Virus genome (UHGV): UHGV-2005300
Direction: 5' to 3' (one strand)
From: a virus
Length of the DNA: 38,727 bases
Made by a program: the position numbers and the translations under genes
In this document: positions 1 to 7,568 of the stretch, piece by piece
How the letters are laid out: each line of letters opens with the position of its first letter
Numbering within the stretch: the stretch's first letter is position 1
Notes under the pieces: model-generated
Database searches by the model: none
Seen by the model: the letters and a program-made list of their open reading frames with translations, nothing else
What the model was told of the DNA's origin: nothing

Positions 1-105
1 TGCTGAGATTTCAACCTGTTGCAGTAAAAATGAGTAGATATAGGGCAAGTGTGCTGCCAAACCCATCTTTTACGGGGCGAAGGTAGATATTGTTAGAAGG
101 GTATC

Positions 106-120
106 TGGTGTCCCCTGCAG
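106..120. repeat. attL core TGGTGTCCCCTGCAG (displaced copy of the tRNA 3' end)
   Basis: Exact 15-bp match to 38652-38666; sequence diverges immediately on both sides. Confidence 0.8.
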
Positions 121-193
121 ACATCTACTTGAGGCGGCAGGGGATTGATTGGAATGGTGTTTTTTAGATGTGAAAAATATTTTACCCGCTATT

Positions 194-394
194 TTACCCA
201 TTGGCGCGGCTTAAGAGCTTATTTTTGAATTCACAATGGTCACGATATAACCATCTTGCTCGTCCGTGGATAACTTTGGCTTTAGGCAGGTCGCCGGACT
301 TAATCCGGTCATAGATGAAGGTCTTACCGAAGCCAGTATCAGCCATGATGAATTTCAAATCAACCAGTGAATCAGGTTGTAGTTCGTGTTGCAT
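194..394 (-). CDS. AlpA-family excisionase / small DNA-binding regulator
   Basis: 66 aa; motif MADTGFGKTFIYDRIKSGDLPKAKV resembles AlpA/Xis-type helix-turn-helix; GGAGA ribosome-binding site; last gene before attL. Confidence 0.6.
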   Translation of the reverse strand: MQHELQPDSLVDLKFIMADTGFGKTFIYDRIKSGDLPKAKVIHGRARWLYRDHCEFKNKLLSRANG

Positions 395-436
395 GAGTGC
401 TATCTCCGAATATGGAATCGAACCTGCAAATCAGGT

Positions 437-460
437 AATAAAAAAACCGCATTGATGCGG
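437..460 (-). terminator. Intrinsic terminator upstream of xis
   Basis: Minus-strand RNA CCGCAUcaAUGCGG followed by U7. Confidence 0.5.
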
Positions 461-517
461 CGATGGTAGGTCTGGATATCTTGATAAATGAAAATGCCTC
501 ATCGAGTGTGAGGCGGG

Positions 518-862
518 TTAGTCCTTGCGTAGCTCGCTGATTCTTCTGTAAGTCTCTGGTGCTTTGTTTCCGTGTATCTTCATTTCAGACTTCAACAGAG
601 CAACGAGAGAATCCCATTCGTTGAGGATGCCTTTGAATGCCGGAACGCGCTTTGCAACCTTGTCGAATGAATCTCTGATTTCTGGAATCTGCTCAACAAG
701 TGCAACGCATCGCCGGAAATCGGCTGCGTCATGTGGAGCACCGAAGCTATGACCATAGATATTCTTTTTCAGTCCACATGCGATTGAGGCAAGAGTTGCG
801 CTACTGATGCCGACATCGCCAGTCGATTGCCATTTCAAAACCTTCATAGCCAAATCTGACAT
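518..862 (-). CDS. Hypothetical protein (114 aa)
   Basis: ORF-track ORF 518-889 trimmed to the ATG at 862 (MSDLAMK...), because the upstream ATG lies inside the terminator hairpin. Confidence 0.5.
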   Translation of the reverse strand: MSDLAMKVLKWQSTGDVGISSATLASIACGLKKNIYGHSFGAPHDAADFRRCVALVEQIPEIRDSFDKVAKRVPAFKGILNEWDSLVALLKSEMKIHGNKAPETYRRISELRKD

Positions 863-874
863 TTCTTGTCTACA

Positions 875-897
875 ATAAAAAACCGCCATCAGGCGGC
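875..897 (-). terminator. Intrinsic terminator
   Basis: Minus-strand hairpin CCGCC-UGAU-GGCGG followed by U6; overlaps the stop of the 55-aa gene. Confidence 0.5.
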
Positions 898-1056
898 ATG
901 GTGTTCTTTCAGTTCTTCAATTCGAATATTGGTTACGTCTGCATGCGCTATCTGCGCCCATATCATCCAGTGGTTATAGCAGTCGTTGATGTTCTCTGCT
1001 TCGATAACTCTGTTGAATGGTTCTCCATTCCATTCACCTGTGACTCGGAAGTGCAT
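889..1056 (-). CDS. Hypothetical small protein (55 aa, MHFRVTGEWNGEPF...)
   Basis: Not in the ORF track (under 60 aa); ATG with GGAG ribosome-binding site 7 nt upstream; translated by hand. Confidence 0.4.
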   Translation of the reverse strand: MHFRVTGEWNGEPFNRVIEAENINDCYNHWMIWAQIAHADVTNIRIEELKEHHAA

Positions 1057-1068
1057 TTATCATCTCCA

Positions 1069-1094
1069 TAAAACAAAACTCGCCGTAGCGAGTT
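1069..1094 (-). terminator. Intrinsic terminator
   Basis: Minus-strand hairpin AACUCGC-uacg-GCGAGUU followed by a U-rich tract. Confidence 0.45.
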
Positions 1095-1139
1095 CAGATA
1101 TAATTTCCACCAAAGGCAGTAGTTGCTTGATGCTAAGAA

Positions 1140-1568
1140 TTATTCAATATCTATTCCTGTAATATCTTTTATCTTTTTCCTTGCAAAGCCTTTTGCTAGT
1201 GATTTTGAAACACTCATAAGTGTACTAATTCCCTCATCCTTAAAGTTTGTTTTTATAGCTTGCCAGACATCCTTTTGACGTAAGTCAGCAATAAAATCAT
1301 GCCCTCTTGCTGTCAACCTCAGTGGTACTTCGATCCAACTATATCCAACACCTTCCCCTAACGCTTTGGACATTATATGACCGAACCCAGGTTTTCCATC
1401 AACCCTGACTATTAATTCGTAGTCATATAATAATCGCATATGGAAAATAAAATCTTGGTCATATCTATTAAAGCCATTATCCTCTAGTTCACTAAGCATC
1501 GTGTCAGGGCCACGAGTTTTTTCGAATGCGATAAGTAGATCTTTTAGATATTGCTGGTCTAATTTCAT
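1140..1568 (-). CDS. Hypothetical protein (142 aa), AT-rich accessory gene
   Basis: Intact ORF with GGAGG ribosome-binding site 5 nt before the ATG; GC content visibly lower than neighbours; the motif LRLTARGHDFIADLRQKDVWQ may match a small phage DUF family (uncertain). Confidence 0.65.
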   Translation of the reverse strand: MKLDQQYLKDLLIAFEKTRGPDTMLSELEDNGFNRYDQDFIFHMRLLYDYELIVRVDGKPGFGHIMSKALGEGVGYSWIEVPLRLTARGHDFIADLRQKDVWQAIKTNFKDEGISTLMSVSKSLAKGFARKKIKDITGIDIE

Positions 1569-1578
1569 TGCCGCCTCC

Positions 1579-1590
1579 GTGACATGTCAC
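1579..1590. promoter_or_regulatory. Perfect 12-bp palindrome GTGACATGTCAC, candidate operator
   Basis: Sits immediately upstream of the ribosome-binding site of the 1140-1568 gene. Confidence 0.3.
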
Positions 1591-1757
1591 AGAGATTTAT
1601 ATCATTAATTTTGTTTCGTGCCAGCCTTTGGTCACCCAGCATTGTGAGTCACCATTACACGGGCATGAATTAACAGGAACTCTCTCGCCGCACTTACCGC
1701 AACGTTTTCTGCTGATCGATTTTATACGCCAGCGCACATGTGCATCATCCTGGCGGC

Positions 1758-2213
1758 TCAGTAACGCGATGTACTCACCAAACTCGCAAGGCGAATGCCT
1801 GAAGCGGCGCGTGGCTCAGTTACGATCCAGCATTTCAATTTCCTGAGCATCAAGTACAAGCTCCAGCTTACGCATACCGGATGATGCTTGCTTGGCTCTC
1901 TGATCGGCTTTGCGCTCTGCTGATGATTTAGCCATTCTGCTTTTCCTGCATTAGGAGAAAGACAATCATGGCGGCGCGGATACTTCCGGTATCTTTTTAC
2001 GCGATATTCCCCATCCAGAGCACATACAAGAAGAGATCCATCAACAGGAGTGAGTGATGAATCGACCACCAGCAATGCACCCTGCAATATTCCCTCACGA
2101 TGATGGCTACCAGCTGCCCTCAAGAAGTAGGTCGCTGAAGGATGTCTAATTATCTGCTGATCAAGAGAAATACGGCTCTCAGCATAATCCGCCGCAGGAG
2201 AAGGGAAGCCCAT
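1758..2213 (-). CDS. UmuD'-like S24-fold protein (HumD-like, no cleavable N-terminal arm), divergent C-terminus
   Basis: Starts M-GFPSPAADYAESRISLDQQIIRHPSATYF, closely matching E. coli UmuD from its Cys24/Gly25 cleavage site; the reading frame after VKRY no longer resembles UmuD. Confidence 0.6.
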   Translation of the reverse strand: MGFPSPAADYAESRISLDQQIIRHPSATYFLRAAGSHHREGILQGALLVVDSSLTPVDGSLLVCALDGEYRVKRYRKYPRRHDCLSPNAGKAEWLNHQQSAKPIREPSKHHPVCVSWSLYLMLRKLKCWIVTEPRAASGIRLASLVSTSRY

Positions 2214-2231
2214 AATACTCGCCTCTTAATG

Positions 2232-2274
2232 CTGTGTATATATACAGTATATGTTGAAGCTATATATTTTTGAA
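2232..2274 (-). promoter_or_regulatory. SOS promoter: LexA box CTGTGTATATATACAG overlapping -10 TATACT, with -35 TTCAAA
   Basis: CTGT-N8-ACAG consensus at 2232-2247, 19 bp upstream of the UmuD'-like ATG; 17-bp spacer between -35 and -10 (read on the minus strand). Confidence 0.7.
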
Positions 2275-2544
2275 CTCTATCTCTTAAAAAAGATGTTAAT
2301 AAGATGCTAACTATTGAAAGGCATAAATATATACTATTCCAACAAACGTTATTTTTAACAAATTTTTTCTCTCCGTTGACTTTTGCGAAAGCCTTGTCTG
2401 GCCTAAATTGCGCGGAAGCTACTTTTTCCTTCCTGAGTTATCCACAGAGTTATGCACTTGCATGTATAACCTATACACACTATCTTAATTCGCAAGACAT
2501 TGATGTTGCGGTATTGAAGGTTCATTGGGTTAAAAATAGACATT

Positions 2545-2575
2545 AAAAAGCCCAGTTGACTAGGCTGGGCTTTTT
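2545..2575. terminator. Bidirectional intrinsic terminator
   Basis: AAAAAGCCCAG-ttgactag-GCTGGGCTTTTT, with an A-run on one side and a T-run on the other. Confidence 0.55.
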
Positions 2576-2612
2576 AAAAGGAAACAGAGTTTGCGGCTCT
2601 GTTCCTGAGCCA

Positions 2613-2801
2613 TAAGTATCTGGCGACTGAATTAAGATTAACCGAATGTACTGGATTCATCAAGAAACGTTGAGTGGTCATACCAGGTAATAATGACCAT
2701 TTACTAAACATCGTTGTTCTCAAAGAAGATTTAAGTCCAGGTTTTTGGTGACTCTAAAACCTTACCTTAACTCGAAATCGTGCCGTAAGTATCTGGCGAC
2801 T
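2613..2801. repeat. Direct repeats TAAGTATCTGGCGACT (2613-2628, 2786-2801), part of a degenerate tandem duplication
   Basis: Two 16-bp copies; the 2771-2790 segment also resembles the 5' end of the small ORF at 2876. Confidence 0.5.
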
Positions 2802-2875
2802 ACAGATATTGCAACTGCAAAGGCAAGCCCAAAGGTATTTGCAGCTAGGCGCGATAAAACTAAGTGAGGCCTGTT

Positions 2876-2959
2876 ATGGTTAACTTACTGTTCAAAATCG
2901 TGCCGCCGATGTTCGCGATTATCAAAGCGATCATTGAGTACGTAAACCAGCGTCCATAA
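2876..2959 (+). CDS. Small hydrophobic peptide (27 aa, MVNLLFKIVPPMFAIIKAIIEYVNQRP)
   Basis: GAGG ribosome-binding site 6 nt upstream; followed by a GC-rich 8-bp stem hairpin at 2973-2997; opposite strand to the surrounding operon; under the ORF-track length cutoff. Confidence 0.35.
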   Translation: MVNLLFKIVPPMFAIIKAIIEYVNQRP

Positions 2960-3014
2960 CGCTAGTTGCTACAGGCCCCATCAAGAGCATGGGGCCTCTT
3001 TATCGTACTATTGC

Positions 3015-3680
3015 TTATTTTTTACGGACTGAGTTGTTCACTGCTCTGGCAATCTTCTCCCGCAATTGCTGCGTTCCGTGGTACTGAACCGCAATATCCC
3101 TCAACTCGTTCACCAGTTCTCGAATCTGGTGATCTTTAAGCTCATTATTTGGGTGATTGGTAACAACTCTGGTTAATTCACCCTTGTCTTTTGCTCTTAC
3201 GTATGCAGCTCTTGTGCATTCGACCCATGTATTACCGCCTACATTAACTTCGTAGATTAGGCTGGACTTATCTGTCAATTCGGAACAAATACGGGCCGTG
3301 GTCTGGCAACTAGAGCATTCGCAGTTATCGCGGAAACCGTGGTCTACTGGCTTCGGTTTCACATCATCAACTTTTTCTACCCTATTGGAATTTAAATACT
3401 TCGAAGCCTTGCTATGCCAATCGCTGGTTTTAGGATCTTGTCCATCCATCAAACGCCAGGCTTCAGCGATTAACTCATAACTAGTGACTGTAGCTTCCTG
3501 CGCATCACCAATAAGTCGTGTAATCTCTCTTTCAAGCCGACCGCCTAGCTCTGTTTTAGTGCAATGTTCTGACCAATCGCCAGCCTCAAGCAGCGCGAGA
3601 ATGCTTAAAATATCGTCCAATAGAACGGTAGTATTATCGACTTCCTTCTGAAACTCACCGGCTACTGATTTATGCATCAT
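3015..3680 (-). CDS. Hypothetical early protein (221 aa)
   Basis: Long intact ORF coupled (ATGA) to the upstream gene; contains a cysteine cluster DNCECSSCQTTARIC; no family recognised by eye. Confidence 0.7.
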   Translation of the reverse strand: MMHKSVAGEFQKEVDNTTVLLDDILSILALLEAGDWSEHCTKTELGGRLEREITRLIGDAQEATVTSYELIAEAWRLMDGQDPKTSDWHSKASKYLNSNRVEKVDDVKPKPVDHGFRDNCECSSCQTTARICSELTDKSSLIYEVNVGGNTWVECTRAAYVRAKDKGELTRVVTNHPNNELKDHQIRELVNELRDIAVQYHGTQQLREKIARAVNNSVRKK

Positions 3681-3898
3681 TCGTCATCCTCATCCGAGTC
3701 ATCCTCATCACAGGATGAGAGTAGTGGGTTAGTCATTCGCCCTACTTGAGTGGCGTAGCCACGCCGACAGAGATTGCGCAGCACACTGTATATTTCGAAC
3801 ATCTCGGTTCGTTCATCGCCAACATCAAGCTCAGATGCTATAGCGTGGCATTCAGTCGCGAGAGCCGATATTTTCTGAAATAACTCTGCTTTATTCAC
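3677..3898 (-). CDS. Hypothetical acidic small protein (73 aa, GTG start)
   Basis: Trimmed from ORF 3677-4075; proposed GTG start overlaps the stop of the upstream gene with GGAG 7 nt upstream; acidic C-terminal tail. Confidence 0.4.
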   Translation of the reverse strand: MNKAELFQKISALATECHAIASELDVGDERTEMFEIYSVLRNLCRRGYATQVGRMTNPLLSSCDEDDSDEDDE

Positions 3899-4187
3899 TC
3901 TTCGACTCCTGTGGCGGTTCTGGTAGTGGCATCCAGTGAGTTGCTTGCTCAATAATGAGTTGCTCTTCGCTTTTCTCCAGTTCAGCAATGCGCTTACTCC
4001 CATCCGAGATAACACCTTCGTAATACTCACGCTGCTCGTTGAGTTTTGATTCAAGTTCACCGAACTTACGGACAAGATATTCAGCGTTTGTTTCGTTAAC
4101 CTTTAAATCTCGTGGGATGCATTTACCTTTCAGAAATCCATCCATCTCAATTAGTGACATTTGTTTCATTTCTTCCCACTCCGCCAC
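3891..4187 (-). CDS. Hypothetical coiled-coil protein (98 aa)
   Basis: ORF-track ORF with protein-like charged/helical composition. Confidence 0.6.
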
Positions 4188-4348
4188 ATCGCATTCAGAT
4201 ATTTGTTTTGATTTACTGATGGAAAAGAATTTCTCTTAAGCAATTCCTCTCTCGATGGCATTGGCTTTACGCGTTGGCGAATAATCATTTCTGCCGGAAG
4301 AATGCCGGGATTGTATGCAAGTCCTCTCATGGTAAATTCCTCAGTCAT
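4166..4348 (-). CDS. Hypothetical small protein (60 aa)
   Basis: Internal ATG of ORF 4166-4480 that overlaps the stop of the upstream 97-aa gene. Confidence 0.35.
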
Positions 4349-4634
4349 TACTGATAGCGCCATAGCGTGAGCGGTAATTACGCAGGCGCGGGTCAATTTC
4401 AGGGAAGTGGGTATATGTGGCTTTGCGGAATGGTCGGATTGATGTCTGGTAAATTCGCTCGCGTTCTTCTTTCTCTGCAAGCCATATACAGTGGCGAAAT
4501 TCCTTTTCCTCTTTCGTTTCCTGCGGTAGAGCCATTATTCGATCGTAGTTTTTTCTGAATTTATCCAGCACCTCCGATACGGAATTGCCGGAACAGCGGC
4601 GTGGGTCATCCGCACCATACAGAGGCGCTGGCAT
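4341..4634 (-). CDS. Hypothetical early protein (97 aa), possibly Abc2-like anti-RecBCD
   Basis: Position downstream of erf and size match my recollection of P22 Abc2; not verified. Confidence 0.55.
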
Positions 4635-4657
4635 AATTAAATCCTTATTTTTCTAAA

Positions 4658-5041
4658 TCAGAATGGGATGGAATCGTCGTATACAGGAGTGTTCTGCTGG
4701 TTACTACTTTGCTGCTGCGGGCCATTTCCTGAAGCTGCAAATCCAATTTTTGCATTCAGTAATTCAAGAGTGATTGATTGACCATTTTGCCCCTGATAAA
4801 CATCAACCCTGATGTTTTCTCCGGTAATTTCCACAATGCCACCTTCAACAAGAACACTACGGTAGTAATCCGCTTGCGCTCCCGGCTTGGCAAATACAAC
4901 GGCGCTGTAGTTTGTCCATTCTTTCTTTTTTGTCTGGCGATCGTAATACTGAACGCCAGCACGGATGTTGAATCCGATATTTTCCCCGGCCTGAAACTCT
5001 CTTGCGGGCTTGTTTAGTCTTACAGTAATCGAATGTGCCAT
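4658..5041 (-). CDS. SSB-like protein (127 aa) with SSB-type C-terminal tip
   Basis: Gln/Gly-rich linker and C-terminus PVYDDSIPF, resembling the bacterial SSB DDDIPF tip; ATG overlaps the erf stop (TAATG). Confidence 0.65.
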   Translation of the reverse strand: MAHSITVRLNKPAREFQAGENIGFNIRAGVQYYDRQTKKKEWTNYSAVVFAKPGAQADYYRSVLVEGGIVEITGENIRVDVYQGQNGQSITLELLNAKIGFAASGNGPQQQSSNQQNTPVYDDSIPF

Positions 5042-5646
5042 TAAGCAGCCGCTCCTTCTAATTCGTCTCGTCTGATGTTGTAAACGCCCTGCGCTTTGTG
5101 CTGCTCCGGTGTGCCTTCGAGCATCTTCCACGCTTTGGCGAACGCCTGTTTAAGCTCTTCTACGGTGTTTTTCTGCATTGCTGCGTCAGTGAATGCTTTT
5201 AGAACCTGTTCAGGTGTAGGTGATGGCTTTGATTGCTTTGCTGCTGCGTTCTGCTGATGTTTATGCTCGTCGGTATCTGCATCTTTCGCATCATCAATGC
5301 CGAATAAACCATTGAGGCAATACTTGCGTGCATAAGAGCTTGTAGCTCCAGTAACTTGTGCAGAATCCATTCCTTTCTTGCTTTCTTCCTCTCGTGCAAG
5401 AGCGGTTGCCGTATGACTGTTTTCGCCATCGGTAATAGTTGCCGTGGCTTTCACGTAATACCGATCACCAATCAACACAACTTCATCGCTGATTGATAAA
5501 AACAGGCCATTCAGTAACGGCTTAACGCCTTCAAGAATGTCTTCGCAGCTTCTGTATTTATATTTGCCGAATGAGTTGTACTGATTCTTTGGCGCGTTCA
5601 GATTCTCCTGAATAGCTGCCAGTCTTGCGTAAAATTCTTTGCTCAT
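5041..5646 (-). CDS. erf: Erf-family single-strand annealing recombinase
   Basis: MSKEFYARLAAIQENLNAPKNQYNSFGKYKYRSCEDILEG matches P22 Erf from memory; first ATG of the ORF. Confidence 0.85.
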   Translation of the reverse strand: MSKEFYARLAAIQENLNAPKNQYNSFGKYKYRSCEDILEGVKPLLNGLFLSISDEVVLIGDRYYVKATATITDGENSHTATALAREEESKKGMDSAQVTGATSSYARKYCLNGLFGIDDAKDADTDEHKHQQNAAAKQSKPSPTPEQVLKAFTDAAMQKNTVEELKQAFAKAWKMLEGTPEQHKAQGVYNIRRDELEGAAA

Positions 5647-5747
5647 ATTATTGTTCTCAGAATGGACACGGCCCAAGGAAATAACGCTGATTTAATACTT
5701 CGACTCGGGACAAATTAAGGCATACCCGCATCCCTTCGCGGTCACCA

Positions 5748-5906
5748 TTATGGCGATACCAGAGAGCTTTCTGCGTGTACATGCGTCTCTGTAACTTGCT
5801 CTCCTTCACTGTGGTTGCAAGTGACATGAATATCTCCTTCGTTACCGATTAAATCTTTCATCTGACGAATGAATTCTTCGTCTGACCAGTTATCTGTAAA
5901 ACTCAT
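5748..5906 (-). CDS. Hypothetical small protein (52 aa, MSFTDNWSDEEF...)
   Basis: ATG overlaps the kil-like stop (ATGA); a competing overlapping 56-aa ORF exists at 5657-5827. Confidence 0.3.
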   Translation of the reverse strand: MSFTDNWSDEEFIRQMKDLIGNEGDIHVTCNHSEGEQVTETHVHAESSLVSP

Positions 5907-6055
5907 TTCCTGCGATACCACGGAAGGTTGATAGCTGATTTCATCGCTTTATTTGCTTCAAGCCACATTTTTGAATCACCAATAAATCTGGCTATTACTG
6001 CTTTGTTCTGTGCAGCACGAAGCATCTGGTGATTAATGGCTATTTCATTGCGCAT
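5903..6055 (-). CDS. kil: Kil-like small protein (50 aa)
   Basis: Segment IARFIGDSKMWLEA resembles lambda Kil as I recall it; GGAGG ribosome-binding site; position after cIII as in lambda. Confidence 0.45.
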   Translation of the reverse strand: MRNEIAINHQMLRAAQNKAVIARFIGDSKMWLEANKAMKSAINLPWYRRK

Positions 6056-6174
6056 AACGCCTCCAGTTGTTTCTTTGCTGCTCTGATTAATTGTTTAACT
6101 CGGCGTGATAATTCAGATTCGTGCGGGTAGAAAGCGGACATGACGCCGCTACCCGCGAGCTGAAAGTGCATCAT
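6040..6174 (-). CDS. cIII: cIII-like small protein (44 aa)
   Basis: MMHFQLAGSGVMSAFYPHESELSRRVKQLIR resembles the lambda CIII core; AAGGAG ribosome-binding site before ATGATG. Confidence 0.5.
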   Translation of the reverse strand: MMHFQLAGSGVMSAFYPHESELSRRVKQLIRAAKKQLEALCAMK

Positions 6175-6257
6175 GGGTAACTCCTTATATTTGATTGCAT
6201 AACGAAAATGCCTCTCGTGAAGCATTATTGGTATGCGGTAAAGCCGCGCTCAGGCGG

Positions 6258-6670: not shown

Positions 6671-7568
<898 letters not shown>

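Follow-up and report, generated by a model that had tools for sequence, protein, structure and literature searches.

Positions 3015-4634 of the window, as we call the whole 38,727-nt stretch of viral DNA analysed here, are bounded exactly by the stop of a 221-aa ORF and the start of a 97-aa ORF, and hold five genes, all of them, like these two ORFs, on the minus strand. Three of the raw ORFs turned out to be over-extended, and after refinement the genes are abc2 (4341-4634, 97 aa, ATG start), a DUF2737 gene (4166-4330, 54 aa, ATG start, in place of a raw 104-aa ORF with a TTG start), a 92-aa gene (3891-4169, ATG start, in place of a raw 98-aa ORF with a GTG start), a 73-aa gene (3677-3898, GTG start preceded by AGGAG, in place of a raw 132-aa ORF with a TTG start) and a 221-aa gene (3015-3680, ATG start). 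They are joined by one 10-nt gap and three start/stop overlaps, the spacing from abc2 to the 221-aa gene being +10, -4 (ATGA), -8 and -4 (ATGA) nt, which bears out an earlier description, made from the sequence alone, of five tightly packed and mostly overlapping genes. A 99%-identical E. coli prophage in RefSeq carries identical models for four of the genes, the 92-aa gene being annotated there as a shorter partial pseudogene. The genes are genuine and not chance ORFs: each of the exact protein sequences recurs in public contigs, of which there are between 44 and at least 1000 per protein.

Each of the five proteins matched a Pfam or PHROG family, with E-values from 1e-27 to 1e-162. On the other hand, the NCBIfam search gave no match for any of them, the PDB sequence searches were empty apart from Abc2, and PADLOC returned only chance-level matches (E>0.003, about 14 bits) for the proteins of the block. 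Nothing on the four genes other than abc2 turned up in the literature, which was searched for their accessions, gene names and PHROG numbers. Directly upstream of abc2, and on the same strand, lie an SSB-like gene of the HK97 gp40 type (4658-5041; phrog_44 'single strand DNA binding protein', 2.9e-27) and a gene for an Erf single-strand annealing protein (5041-5646; Pfam PF04404 ERF, 2.4e-44). The block forms the distal end of the leftward early (PL) operon of a P22-like E. coli phage, and the earlier description placed it correctly between a terminator region and the recombination genes, with a terminator hairpin at its far end.

The suggestion, based on size and position, that the 97-aa protein is an Abc2-type anti-RecBCD factor was confirmed by the profile searches, in which it matched Pfam PF11043 (Anti-RecBCD_p2) over its full length (positions 1-97 of 97; 2e-63, 211 bits against a cut-off of 25) and phrog_656 'abc2 anti-RecBCD' (5e-55). 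It also matched PDB 8B1T_A, P22 Abc2 on RecBCD, at 5.6e-58 with 88 of 97 residues identical, and RefSeq labels the identical protein 'phage anti-RecBCD protein'. By its sequence, the protein is Abc2, and its gene is the last one in a recombination module made up of Erf, an SSB-like protein and Abc2. Its length equals that of P22 Abc2 (PF11043; PDB 8B1T/8B1U), only 3 substitutions fall in the ordered RecC-binding residues 3-66, and Pro68, the PpiB site, is kept within IRPFRK. As P22 Abc2 on RecBCD leaves the helicase activity in place while the Chi response is lost (PMC9836394), RecC binding and loss of the RecBCD Chi response can be putatively assigned to the protein described here by orthology, at 91% identity. 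The host here is Escherichia while that of P22 is Salmonella, and the solved P22 Abc2 complex was already one with E. coli RecBCD. As in P22, abc2 closes a Rec module that contains Erf, and the small DUF2737 gene comes next; unlike in P22, the SSB-like gene occupies the place where P22 carries abc1, and no arf was identified in the module. The gene order erf-gp40-abc2 is that of HK97, and the Rec-module context has been described before (PMC12315714).

The small basic protein (pI 11) encoded from 10 nt past the abc2 stop belongs to DUF2737 (Pfam PF10930, positions 1-52 of 53, 1.5e-30, 105 bits against a cut-off of 25; phrog_1117, 4e-38). Its equivalents P22 ORF56, HK620 HkaI and HK97 gp38 likewise follow abc2 at a distance of 10 nt, and the protein has no feature that distinguishes it from them, being 100% identical to HK620 HkaI and 94% to HK97 gp38. 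DUF2737 was found downstream of abc2 in 77 of 79 IMG/VR loci, with the identical 10-nt gap in 59, and among phage records Abc2 is present in 225 and full-length DUF2737 in 223. The 120 homologues listed are mostly 50-60 aa long (35-95 aa if partial and over-extended calls are counted) and carry PF10930 alone; none of them is fused to Abc2 or to another domain. From synteny we infer for DUF2737 a role in the early DNA-end or recombination processes in which Abc2 takes part. However, records matching DUF2737 number 647 in all, several hundred of which are virulent siphoviruses that match only its C-terminal half, and since Abc2 occurs in only 225 records, almost all of them temperate enterobacterial phages, these siphoviruses are largely without Abc2. 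The function of DUF2737 thus need not involve RecBCD. Abc2, for its part, binds RecBCD without DUF2737 (PMC9836394). The linkage of abc2 and DUF2737 (77 of 79 loci) offers a cheap and testable lead on an unstudied family of small proteins.

The next gene starts with an ATG that overlaps the DUF2737 stop as ATGA, and its 92-aa product is a composite. Its first 66 residues form an Ea22-like N-terminus and a coiled coil and match HK022 gp35 'ead/Ea22-like' without a difference; a 6-aa joint follows, and then the last ~20 aa of DUF551, without any C-terminal domain. These ~20 residues recur without change at the end of P0072, a DUF551 protein, and are all that the two have in common. The match to Pfam DUF551 (PF04448, a domain of ~68 residues) scores 34.8 bits, above the cut-off of 22. 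RefSeq annotates the gene as a partial DUF551 pseudogene. Ea22 proteins are built of a variable N-terminus, a coiled coil and a swappable C-terminal domain, DUF551 included (PMC10834534). In its N-terminal segment and coiled coil the 92-aa protein resembles this family (PF13935), in particular HK022 gp35 and those Ea22_V2 variants whose C-terminal domain is DUF551; its sequence ends in HWMPLPEPP, the signature of DUF551, and its gene occupies the slot between the recombination genes and xis that Ea22 has in lambda and Stx phages. Unlike the family, it has lost the whole C-terminal domain, having 92 aa instead of 182-235 aa, and the three-part architecture is absent, with only 26 aa following the N-terminus and coiled coil. 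The gene is a truncated Ea22/DUF551 chimera with a recombination joint, not a free-standing novel gene.

As Ea22 promotes lysogeny in lambda and Stx phages and belongs to a mosaic family with swappable C-terminal domains (PMC10834534), the 92-aa protein, with its Ea22-type N-terminus and coiled coil, and the 221-aa protein might act as modulators of the lysis-lysogeny decision in the strict sense of lambda Ea22, biasing it to lysogeny. We regard this as unlikely, because the match of the 92-aa protein to Pfam Ead_Ea22 (PF13935) stays at 23.2-23.5 bits, under the cut-off of 27, and spans profile positions 113-139 only, and because the C-terminal domain is missing, although what the literature records on that point is solely the inactivity of an isolated C-terminal domain (PMC10834534). 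Moreover, the 221-aa protein has no Ea22 similarity.

The 92-aa gene also contains a mosaic junction (3938-3971), with DNA of SSU5-like phage-plasmids to its left and DNA of HK022/HK97/Stx phages to its right. Positions 1975-3938 of the window are 98.5% identical to the SSU5-like phage-plasmid Cyrano, which is pLF82 (PMC9928086), and positions 3971-6236 are 96-97% identical to HK022/HK97. The left-hand segment was imported from an SSU5-like phage-plasmid such as Cyrano/pLF82. In the coding sequences of the 221-aa and 73-aa proteins (CYRAN_96/CYRAN_97 in Cyrano), and in the 800-bp gap next to humD, identity to Cyrano is 98-99%. The imported segment begins and ends within genes, namely humD, the truncated neighbour of the block, and DUF551, so that the 73-aa and 221-aa genes may be mere passengers. 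The arrangement shows that genes have passed between phage-plasmids of the SSU5 type and integrative phages of the P22 type. The combination is a rare one: at least 80% of positions 2900-4700 was found in one place in only 7 of 5426 E. coli genomes, and some part of it in 2466. The 1.5 kb that follow DUF2737 fell into 61 clusters among 70 sequences, most of which share with the window just the first 110-124 nt.

The 73-aa gene (3677-3898), whose GTG start with an AGGAG Shine-Dalgarno sequence overlaps the upstream stop by 8 nt, is carried by RefSeq as an identical CDS. Its product matched phrog_4220 (8.8e-42, positions 1-73 of 79), and 56 homologues were found, those named by source coming from Escherichia or Klebsiella. 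In an alignment of 32 sequences (70-87 aa) 11 columns are invariant, lying within GDERTEMFEIY..VL and NPLL, while the acidic tail, SSCDEDDSDEDDE in the protein described here (pI 4.3), is variable in sequence and present in 29 of 31 homologues. AlphaFold2 gave a model with a mean pLDDT of 81, with helices at residues 3-23 and 28-56 and values below 50 in the tail; the protein is accordingly predicted to be a two-helix hairpin with a disordered polyacidic tail. Against the homologue from a Klebsiella phage, which also has a GTG start, dN/dS is 0.12 (dS ~1.1).

In Cyrano one C is missing after CCAGAA, whereby the DUF551 ORF runs into the frame of the 73-aa gene and yields a 217-aa fusion; unlike Cyrano, the window keeps two separate genes and the canonical stop. 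The Cyrano fusion gave rise to the idea of a programmed frameshift joining the 92-aa and 73-aa ORFs. We rejected it because the 73-aa family is stand-alone with a conserved GTG/ATG start, and because the fusion in Cyrano comes from a 1-nt deletion. A fixed gene partner for the 73-aa gene was ruled out as well, the homologues being found in unrelated places (the nin region of a Klebsiella phage; the C-terminus of HK639_32).

The 221-aa protein (3015-3680) matched phrog_20174 at 9.5e-162 over positions 1-221 of 284, short of the full length of the family, as its 284-aa relatives bear an extra 63-aa C-terminal domain that is absent here. It belongs to no Pfam, NCBIfam or PADLOC family, and the AlphaFold2 model, built on an alignment of 46 sequences, was too poor for a fold search (mean pLDDT 47, pTM 0.27). 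Its exact sequence occurs in 337 contigs, and compared with Cyrano/pEsc11 the gene shows 1 non-synonymous versus 4-5 synonymous differences. The protein is best described, from comparison with its relatives, as a string of short portable modules. The first is a helical module (aa 1-105; 3366-3680, minus strand) common to many proteins with other C-terminal domains: 91-98% identical copies form the N-terminus of 176-aa proteins and of DUF551 proteins, its first ~75 aa recur at 97-100% identity at the start of a 3'-5' exoribonuclease (PF16473) and of an HTH protein, and phrog_19524 covers residues 1-63. The last is a portable helical motif of 36-39 aa (aa 178-216; 3033-3149, minus strand), ELKDHQIRELVNELRDIAVQYHGTQQLREKIARAVNN. 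At E<=1e-3, 672 cluster representatives match the 221-aa protein, and most of those listed match only this motif, as do five PHROG families. In the relatives it is typically 75-85% identical and stands at the N-terminus, in the middle or at the C-terminus of proteins of ~50-460 aa.

Between these two lies a cysteine knuckle (aa 112-135; 3276-3347, minus strand), PVDHGFRDNCECSSCQTTARICSE. The cysteine cluster pointed out in the sequence-only reading, DNCECSSCQTTARIC, is real; it consists of Cys 120, 122, 125 and 132 (CxCxxCx6C), and the pattern DHG[FY]R..C[EV]C..C..TARIC is kept in the representatives of five separate 50%-identity clusters (P0249, P0250, P0254, P0255 and P0263) in different sequence contexts. 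With four cysteines whose spacing is kept across divergent homologues, the cluster has the general form of a zinc-binding cysteine knuckle, and its metal binding is putative; the 221-aa protein matched none of the Pfam zinc-finger families. The mosaic joints fall in conserved short motifs, such as HWMPLPEPP and the 36-aa HQIRELVN...QQLRE, which suggests that such motifs serve as recombination linkers besides being protein modules.

The 92-, 73- and 221-aa ORFs could instead be non-functional remnants of mosaic recombination. The 92-aa gene lacks its C-terminal domain and is a pseudogene in RefSeq, the 221-aa protein lacks the 63 aa that end its 284-aa relatives, the adjacent humD is truncated, and the model of the 221-aa protein is of low confidence. 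However, the open frames, the start/stop overlaps and the Shine-Dalgarno sites have all been preserved, the exact proteins occur in 278 (for the 92-aa protein) to at least 1000 contigs, and the 221-aa form is also that of the phage-plasmid Cyrano and the plasmid pEsc11. Substitutions speak against debris too, both in the 73-aa gene, with its dN/dS of 0.12 at a dS of ~1.1, and in the 221-aa gene, where the synonymous differences outnumber the single non-synonymous one. We consider mere debris to be rather improbable; purifying selection acts on the 73-aa and 221-aa genes, both of which are intact.

Another possibility is that the block is an anti-defence island, in which the 73-aa, 221-aa and DUF2737 proteins would inhibit host immunity, for example as DNA mimics or decoys against restriction enzymes, RecBCD-guarding systems or systems of the Gabija/OLD type. 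The genes are expressed early and adjoin a proven RecBCD modulator, the content of the slot is extremely variable, as is typical of counter-defence loci, and the 73-aa protein is strongly acidic, with a tail whose polyacidic character is kept across its family. Recent work, in which Rec-locus genes trigger or evade OLD and Gabija, points the same way. On the other hand, no homology or structural match to known anti-defence proteins was found, the PADLOC matches being noise. Foldseek searches of the PDB and the viral BFVD with the 73-aa model, the only one fit for a structural search, yielded just generic helical hairpins at E>0.6 and no match at E<0.1. Moreover, the segment came as a block whose ends cut genes, so that selection on each gene is not implied. 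An island of this kind is, in our estimate, a doubtful explanation.

The profile and structure searches proposed in the sequence-only reading thus identified Abc2 and DUF2737 by their profiles, and left the 73-aa protein without a structural match. Its assignment of the region to host takeover and anti-defence holds for Abc2; for the other four proteins it follows from position only, as the searches of PADLOC, NCBIfam and PDB sequences, and of structures for the 73-aa protein, gave no matches. Its statement that the five genes lack a recognisable function holds only in part, since abc2 encodes a RecBCD modulator, DUF2737 is a named family that nearly always follows abc2, and the 92-aa gene is an Ea22/DUF551 chimera. 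As a correction to the annotation, five 'unknown' genes include one RecBCD modulator, one constant companion and one recombination scar. The block is an ordinary region that was correctly spotted.

Taken as a whole, we consider it likely that the locus is a distal part of the N-antiterminated PL operon of a complete P22-like podovirus, comprising the conserved abc2-DUF2737 pair and three hypervariable accessory genes. The pair (4166-4634) would close the Erf / SSB-like / Abc2 recombination module, in which the Abc2-altered RecBCD would resect phage DNA ends for Erf and would neither degrade the phage nor load RecA. The three accessory genes (3015-4169) would be of the lambdoid 'exo-xis / ea' type, made of short portable modules and acquired by recombination, and the joint within the Ea22/DUF551 gene would have left a 92-aa coiled-coil protein without its C-terminal domain. 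Judging by composition, fold and position, their products are most likely non-enzymatic binders of host or phage proteins, which would modulate early development or interference with the host, as has been reported of lambda Ea22; in the 73-aa protein the acidic tail would serve as a nucleic-acid or SSB-tail-like decoy.

A bolder proposal, which we hold to be a long shot, joins two parts. DUF2737 would be a third player in the hijack of RecBCD by Abc2, linking, for example, the altered enzyme with SSB or the annealing protein, which would explain its fixed 10-nt distance after abc2 whatever the recombinase. The 73-aa hairpin, whose polyacidic tail often contains Trp, would be a decoy of a new kind that inhibits a DNA-binding or defence protein of the host, and it would move between phage-plasmids and integrative phages.

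Just past the stop of the 221-aa gene, a hairpin on the plus strand (2973-2997) has a 9-bp stem with 6 G-C pairs, followed by CTTTATCG. As its T-rich tail is present on the plus strand only, it should terminate a convergent small-peptide transcript and not the leftward operon. In the phage-plasmid relatives the stem is kept while the loop varies. The adjoining unannotated gap (2540-3000) looks like a type I toxin-antitoxin locus, which has no sequence-level similarity to dinQ/agrAB of K-12, and we judge this gap to be more interesting than the five-gene block itself. Its predicted parts would be a minus-strand RNA of ~90 nt (2631 to 2542), a plus-strand mRNA that ends at 2997, and a 27-aa peptide. 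The candidate locus is widespread in Escherichia phage-plasmids.

The window covers the complete genome, circularly permuted, of a P22-like Escherichia podovirus, with vB_EcoP-720R6, HZ41, IME10 and Sf101 as its closest relatives. The block of five minus-strand genes at 3015-4634 lies in the leftward early operon. It is preceded there by an N-like gene (7245-7568) and the genes for Erf (5041-5646) and an SSB-like protein (4658-5041), and followed by an excisionase-like gene (194-394, minus strand; RefSeq 'TorI' in a 99%-identical prophage) and the integrase gene int (37333-38526, minus strand). Three of the five raw ORFs were over-extended, and the models were refined accordingly to abc2 (4341-4634, 97 aa), a DUF2737 gene (4166-4330, 54 aa) and genes of 92 aa (3891-4169), 73 aa (3677-3898, with a GTG start 7 nt after an AGGAG) and 221 aa (3015-3680), all on the minus strand. 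The gene-to-gene spacing is +10, -4, -8 and -4 nt, a close packing that probably couples their translation. RefSeq models in a 99%-identical E. coli prophage (window 1-4638) agree for four of the five genes, with the 92-aa gene annotated as a shorter partial pseudogene, and public collections contain exact copies of all five proteins, each in 44 to at least 1000 contigs. The gene models, their spacing, the RefSeq agreement and the public copies therefore bear out the sequence-only reading, which had described five packed, mostly overlapping genes; that observation was accurate, but the interpretation attached to it was right only in part. The region is of an ordinary, already catalogued kind, and only the abc2-DUF2737 pair and a neighbouring candidate toxin-antitoxin locus were judged worth a bench test.

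The absence of recognisable function, claimed for all five genes, does not hold for the 97-aa gene, and the accompanying guess that its product is Abc2 was correct. Its matches identify the protein as an orthologue of P22 Abc2: full-length to Pfam PF11043 (211 bits), to phrog_656, to the Abc2 chain of PDB 8B1T/8B1U (5.6e-58), and at 88 of 97 residues to P22 Abc2 itself. Only three substitutions fall within the ordered RecC-binding residues 3-66, and Pro68 is kept. P22 Abc2 co-purifies with host PpiB via Pro68 and does not block the helicase activity of RecBCD, and the data are consistent with Murphy's model, in which RecBCD becomes a Chi-blind resection machine serving the phage recombinase Erf (PMC9836394). 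We infer that the window's Abc2 would work as in P22. Erf, SSB-like and Abc2 form one lambdoid Rec-module type (PMC12315714), with the same gene order in HK97 as in the window.

The DUF2737 protein is basic (pI 11) and is 100% identical to HkaI of HK620, 94% to gp38 of HK97 and ~75% to ORF56 of P22. Among deposited phage records, Abc2 was found in 225 and full-length DUF2737 in 223, and in 77 of the 79 IMG/VR loci that reach far enough past abc2, DUF2737 follows on the same strand, 59 of these 77 pairs having the exact 10-nt spacer of the window. The pair is kept with varied upstream annealing proteins, namely Erf, Sak4 (HK620) and a Rad52-type protein (AST215 prophage), and no fusion of DUF2737 was present among the 120 homologues listed. 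The linkage is thus strong, but it is one of synteny only. A longer spacer of ~297-319 nt, seen in 18 of the 77 pairs, means that these loci have an additional small insert or gene between abc2 and DUF2737. DUF2737-matching records number 647 in all, in several hundred of which the C-terminal half alone matches, mostly in virulent Salmonella/Escherichia siphoviruses; since Abc2 is confined to its 225 records, almost all from temperate enterobacterial phages, these half-match records are largely without Abc2. Nothing was found in the literature on the DUF2737 family, which would act in the same early DNA-end context as Abc2.

Sequence comparison shows the 92-aa gene to be a recombination joint. 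Its product matches HK022 gp35 (Ea22-like, 235 aa) exactly over residues 1-66, the N-terminus and coiled coil, and six further residues lead into a 20-residue C-terminal end. This end corresponds to the final strand of a DUF551 domain and is shared unchanged with the C-terminus of the comparison protein P0072. DNA similarity to HK022, HK97 and Stx phages ends at 3971, and similarity to Cyrano (pLF82), an SSU5-like phage-plasmid (PMC9928086), begins at 3938. In Ea22 proteins, a variable N-terminus and a coiled coil are combined with an exchangeable C-terminal domain, which may be DUF551 (PMC10834534), and the 92-aa protein appears as an Ea22 without its C-terminal domain. Despite the RefSeq partial pseudogene call, its frame, start overlap and stop are all intact, and the exact sequence was found in 278 contigs from public collections.

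The 73-aa protein belongs to a small stand-alone family, phrog_4220, with named homologues from Escherichia and Klebsiella. The invariant and near-invariant positions fall in its core (…ALATECH…, GDERTEMFEIY..VL and NPLL), while the C-terminal tail is variable in sequence and almost always polyacidic, often DDDWDEDDD. AlphaFold2 models a two-helix hairpin with confidence (pLDDT 90-97 over residues 1-40) and leaves the tail disordered; the model had no structural neighbours above chance in Foldseek searches of PDB and BFVD. Compared with the Klebsiella-phage homologue, with which it has the GTG start in common, the gene is under purifying selection (dN/dS 0.12 at dS ~1.1). Neighbours of its homologues change between genomes. 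In Cyrano (4778-5431) and plasmid pEsc11 (4518-4769), a single-C deletion after CCAGAA has brought the DUF551 ORF and the 73-aa gene into one reading frame, annotated in Cyrano as a 217-aa fusion and by RefSeq as a pseudogene plus a separate 73-aa CDS, whereas the two are unfused in the window.

The 221-aa protein matches phrog_20174 at positions 1-221 of 284 only; the further 63 aa at the C-terminus of its 284-aa relatives are replaced in the window and Cyrano proteins by SVRKK-stop. Its matches describe a chain of portable pieces. The N-terminal helical module (aa 1-105) is found entire at the head of DUF551 proteins and 176-aa proteins, and its first ~75 aa form the start of a 3'-5' exoribonuclease and of an HTH protein as well; these copies are 91-100% identical. 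The cysteine cluster pointed out earlier is real: in the knuckle DHGFRDNCECSSCQTTARIC, the CxCxxCx6C spacing recurs in five divergent cluster representatives. A short strand-rich segment (EVNVGGNTWVEC...), also present in the comparison protein P0248, and a helical motif of 36-39 aa (HQIRELVNELRDIAVQYHGTQQLREKIAR, window 3033-3149) complete the chain. The motif is the part matched by most of the hits listed among 672 cluster representatives (E<=1e-3); its copies, typically 75-85% identical, have no fixed place in their proteins, which are about 50-460 aa long. As a 36-aa motif, HQIRELVNELRDIAVxYHGTQQLRExIAR, it occurs in hundreds of otherwise different enterobacterial phage accessory proteins (P0248-P0390), often flanked by Pro-rich linkers, and may double as a protein module and a recombination linker sequence. 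For the protein as a whole, AlphaFold2 gave no usable model (pLDDT 47). Against Cyrano and pEsc11, one non-synonymous and 4-5 synonymous differences give a purifying-selection trend like that of the 73-aa gene, from only 5-6 substitutions.

Window 1975-3938 is 98.5% identical to Cyrano and runs from the 5' part of humD across an 800-bp gap and the 221-aa and 73-aa genes to the DUF551 tail, both of its ends falling inside genes (humD and DUF551). The plasmid search covered only the gap portion of this segment (2214-3014), which recurs in about 83 non-mobilizable 100-120-kb Escherichia plasmids. Neither the 73-aa nor the 221-aa gene was found in any of 80 IMG/VR loci with near-identical abc2, and of 5426 complete E. 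coli genomes only 7 have the whole block. Over the 1.5 kb that follow DUF2737, 70 sequences form 61 clusters; the slot is hypervariable, a known trait of the lambdoid exo-xis / ea region. Sequence comparison demonstrates the chimeric and modular nature of the 92-, 73- and 221-aa genes and their origin. The 73-aa and 221-aa proteins are probably non-enzymatic binders or decoys, and an anti-defence role is possible for the four genes other than abc2, for which PADLOC gave only chance-level hits and Foldseek, run on the 73-aa model, no match above chance. In window 1758-2246, the humD/umuD-like gene, within which the phage-plasmid similarity starts at 1975, is truncated (Peptidase_S24 profile positions 8-89 of 116; partial in RefSeq), and a perfect LexA-box-like palindrome, CTGTGTATATATACAG, was seen at 2231-2246, just upstream of its start.

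Within the gap, both strands of 2540-3000 form a candidate type I toxin-antitoxin locus with the layout of tisB/istR or dinQ/agrB. The locus was annotated in none of the records examined, had no sequence similarity to K-12 dinQ/agrAB and matched no Pfam or NCBIfam toxin family. A putative small RNA of ~90 nt (2631 to 2542, minus strand) combines an unpaired 5' end with an internal hairpin and a terminator. It folds with z = -5.7, and its match to the full length of the Rfam AgrB model scores 27.6 bits, short of the gathering score (40). Because the repeat GCC[A/G]TAAGTATCTGGCGACT occurs at 2610 and 2783, the 5' end of the small RNA is complementary over 20 nt to plus-strand RNA 2783-2802, a predicted target site ~75-95 nt upstream of an ORF for a 27-aa amphipathic peptide (MVNLLFKIVPPMFAIIKAIIEYVNQRP; 2876-2959, plus strand, GAGG Shine-Dalgarno) that ends at a terminator (2973-2997). 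In phage-plasmid relatives (90-99% identity), the small RNA and the 5' UTR hardly change and the flank is variable, the peptide ORF has 6 synonymous vs 2 amino-acid changes, and the terminator keeps its stem with a variable loop.

Two other regions of the genome were noted. Directly upstream of erf, a 56-aa minus-strand ORF (5657-5827) without family match shares the position of HK97 gp41/42 and HK75 'Gp33'; 'Gp33' was reported to be sufficient to trigger the OLD abortive-infection system (2026 preprint). At 34900-38000, G+C falls to 33-39%, vs ~50% elsewhere in the late region, over a stretch which spans the receptor-binding part of the tailspike (34678-36339, with a P22 head-binding domain), holds a 201-aa minus-strand ORF (36425-37030) adjoining int, and may represent horizontally acquired cargo or host-range determinants.
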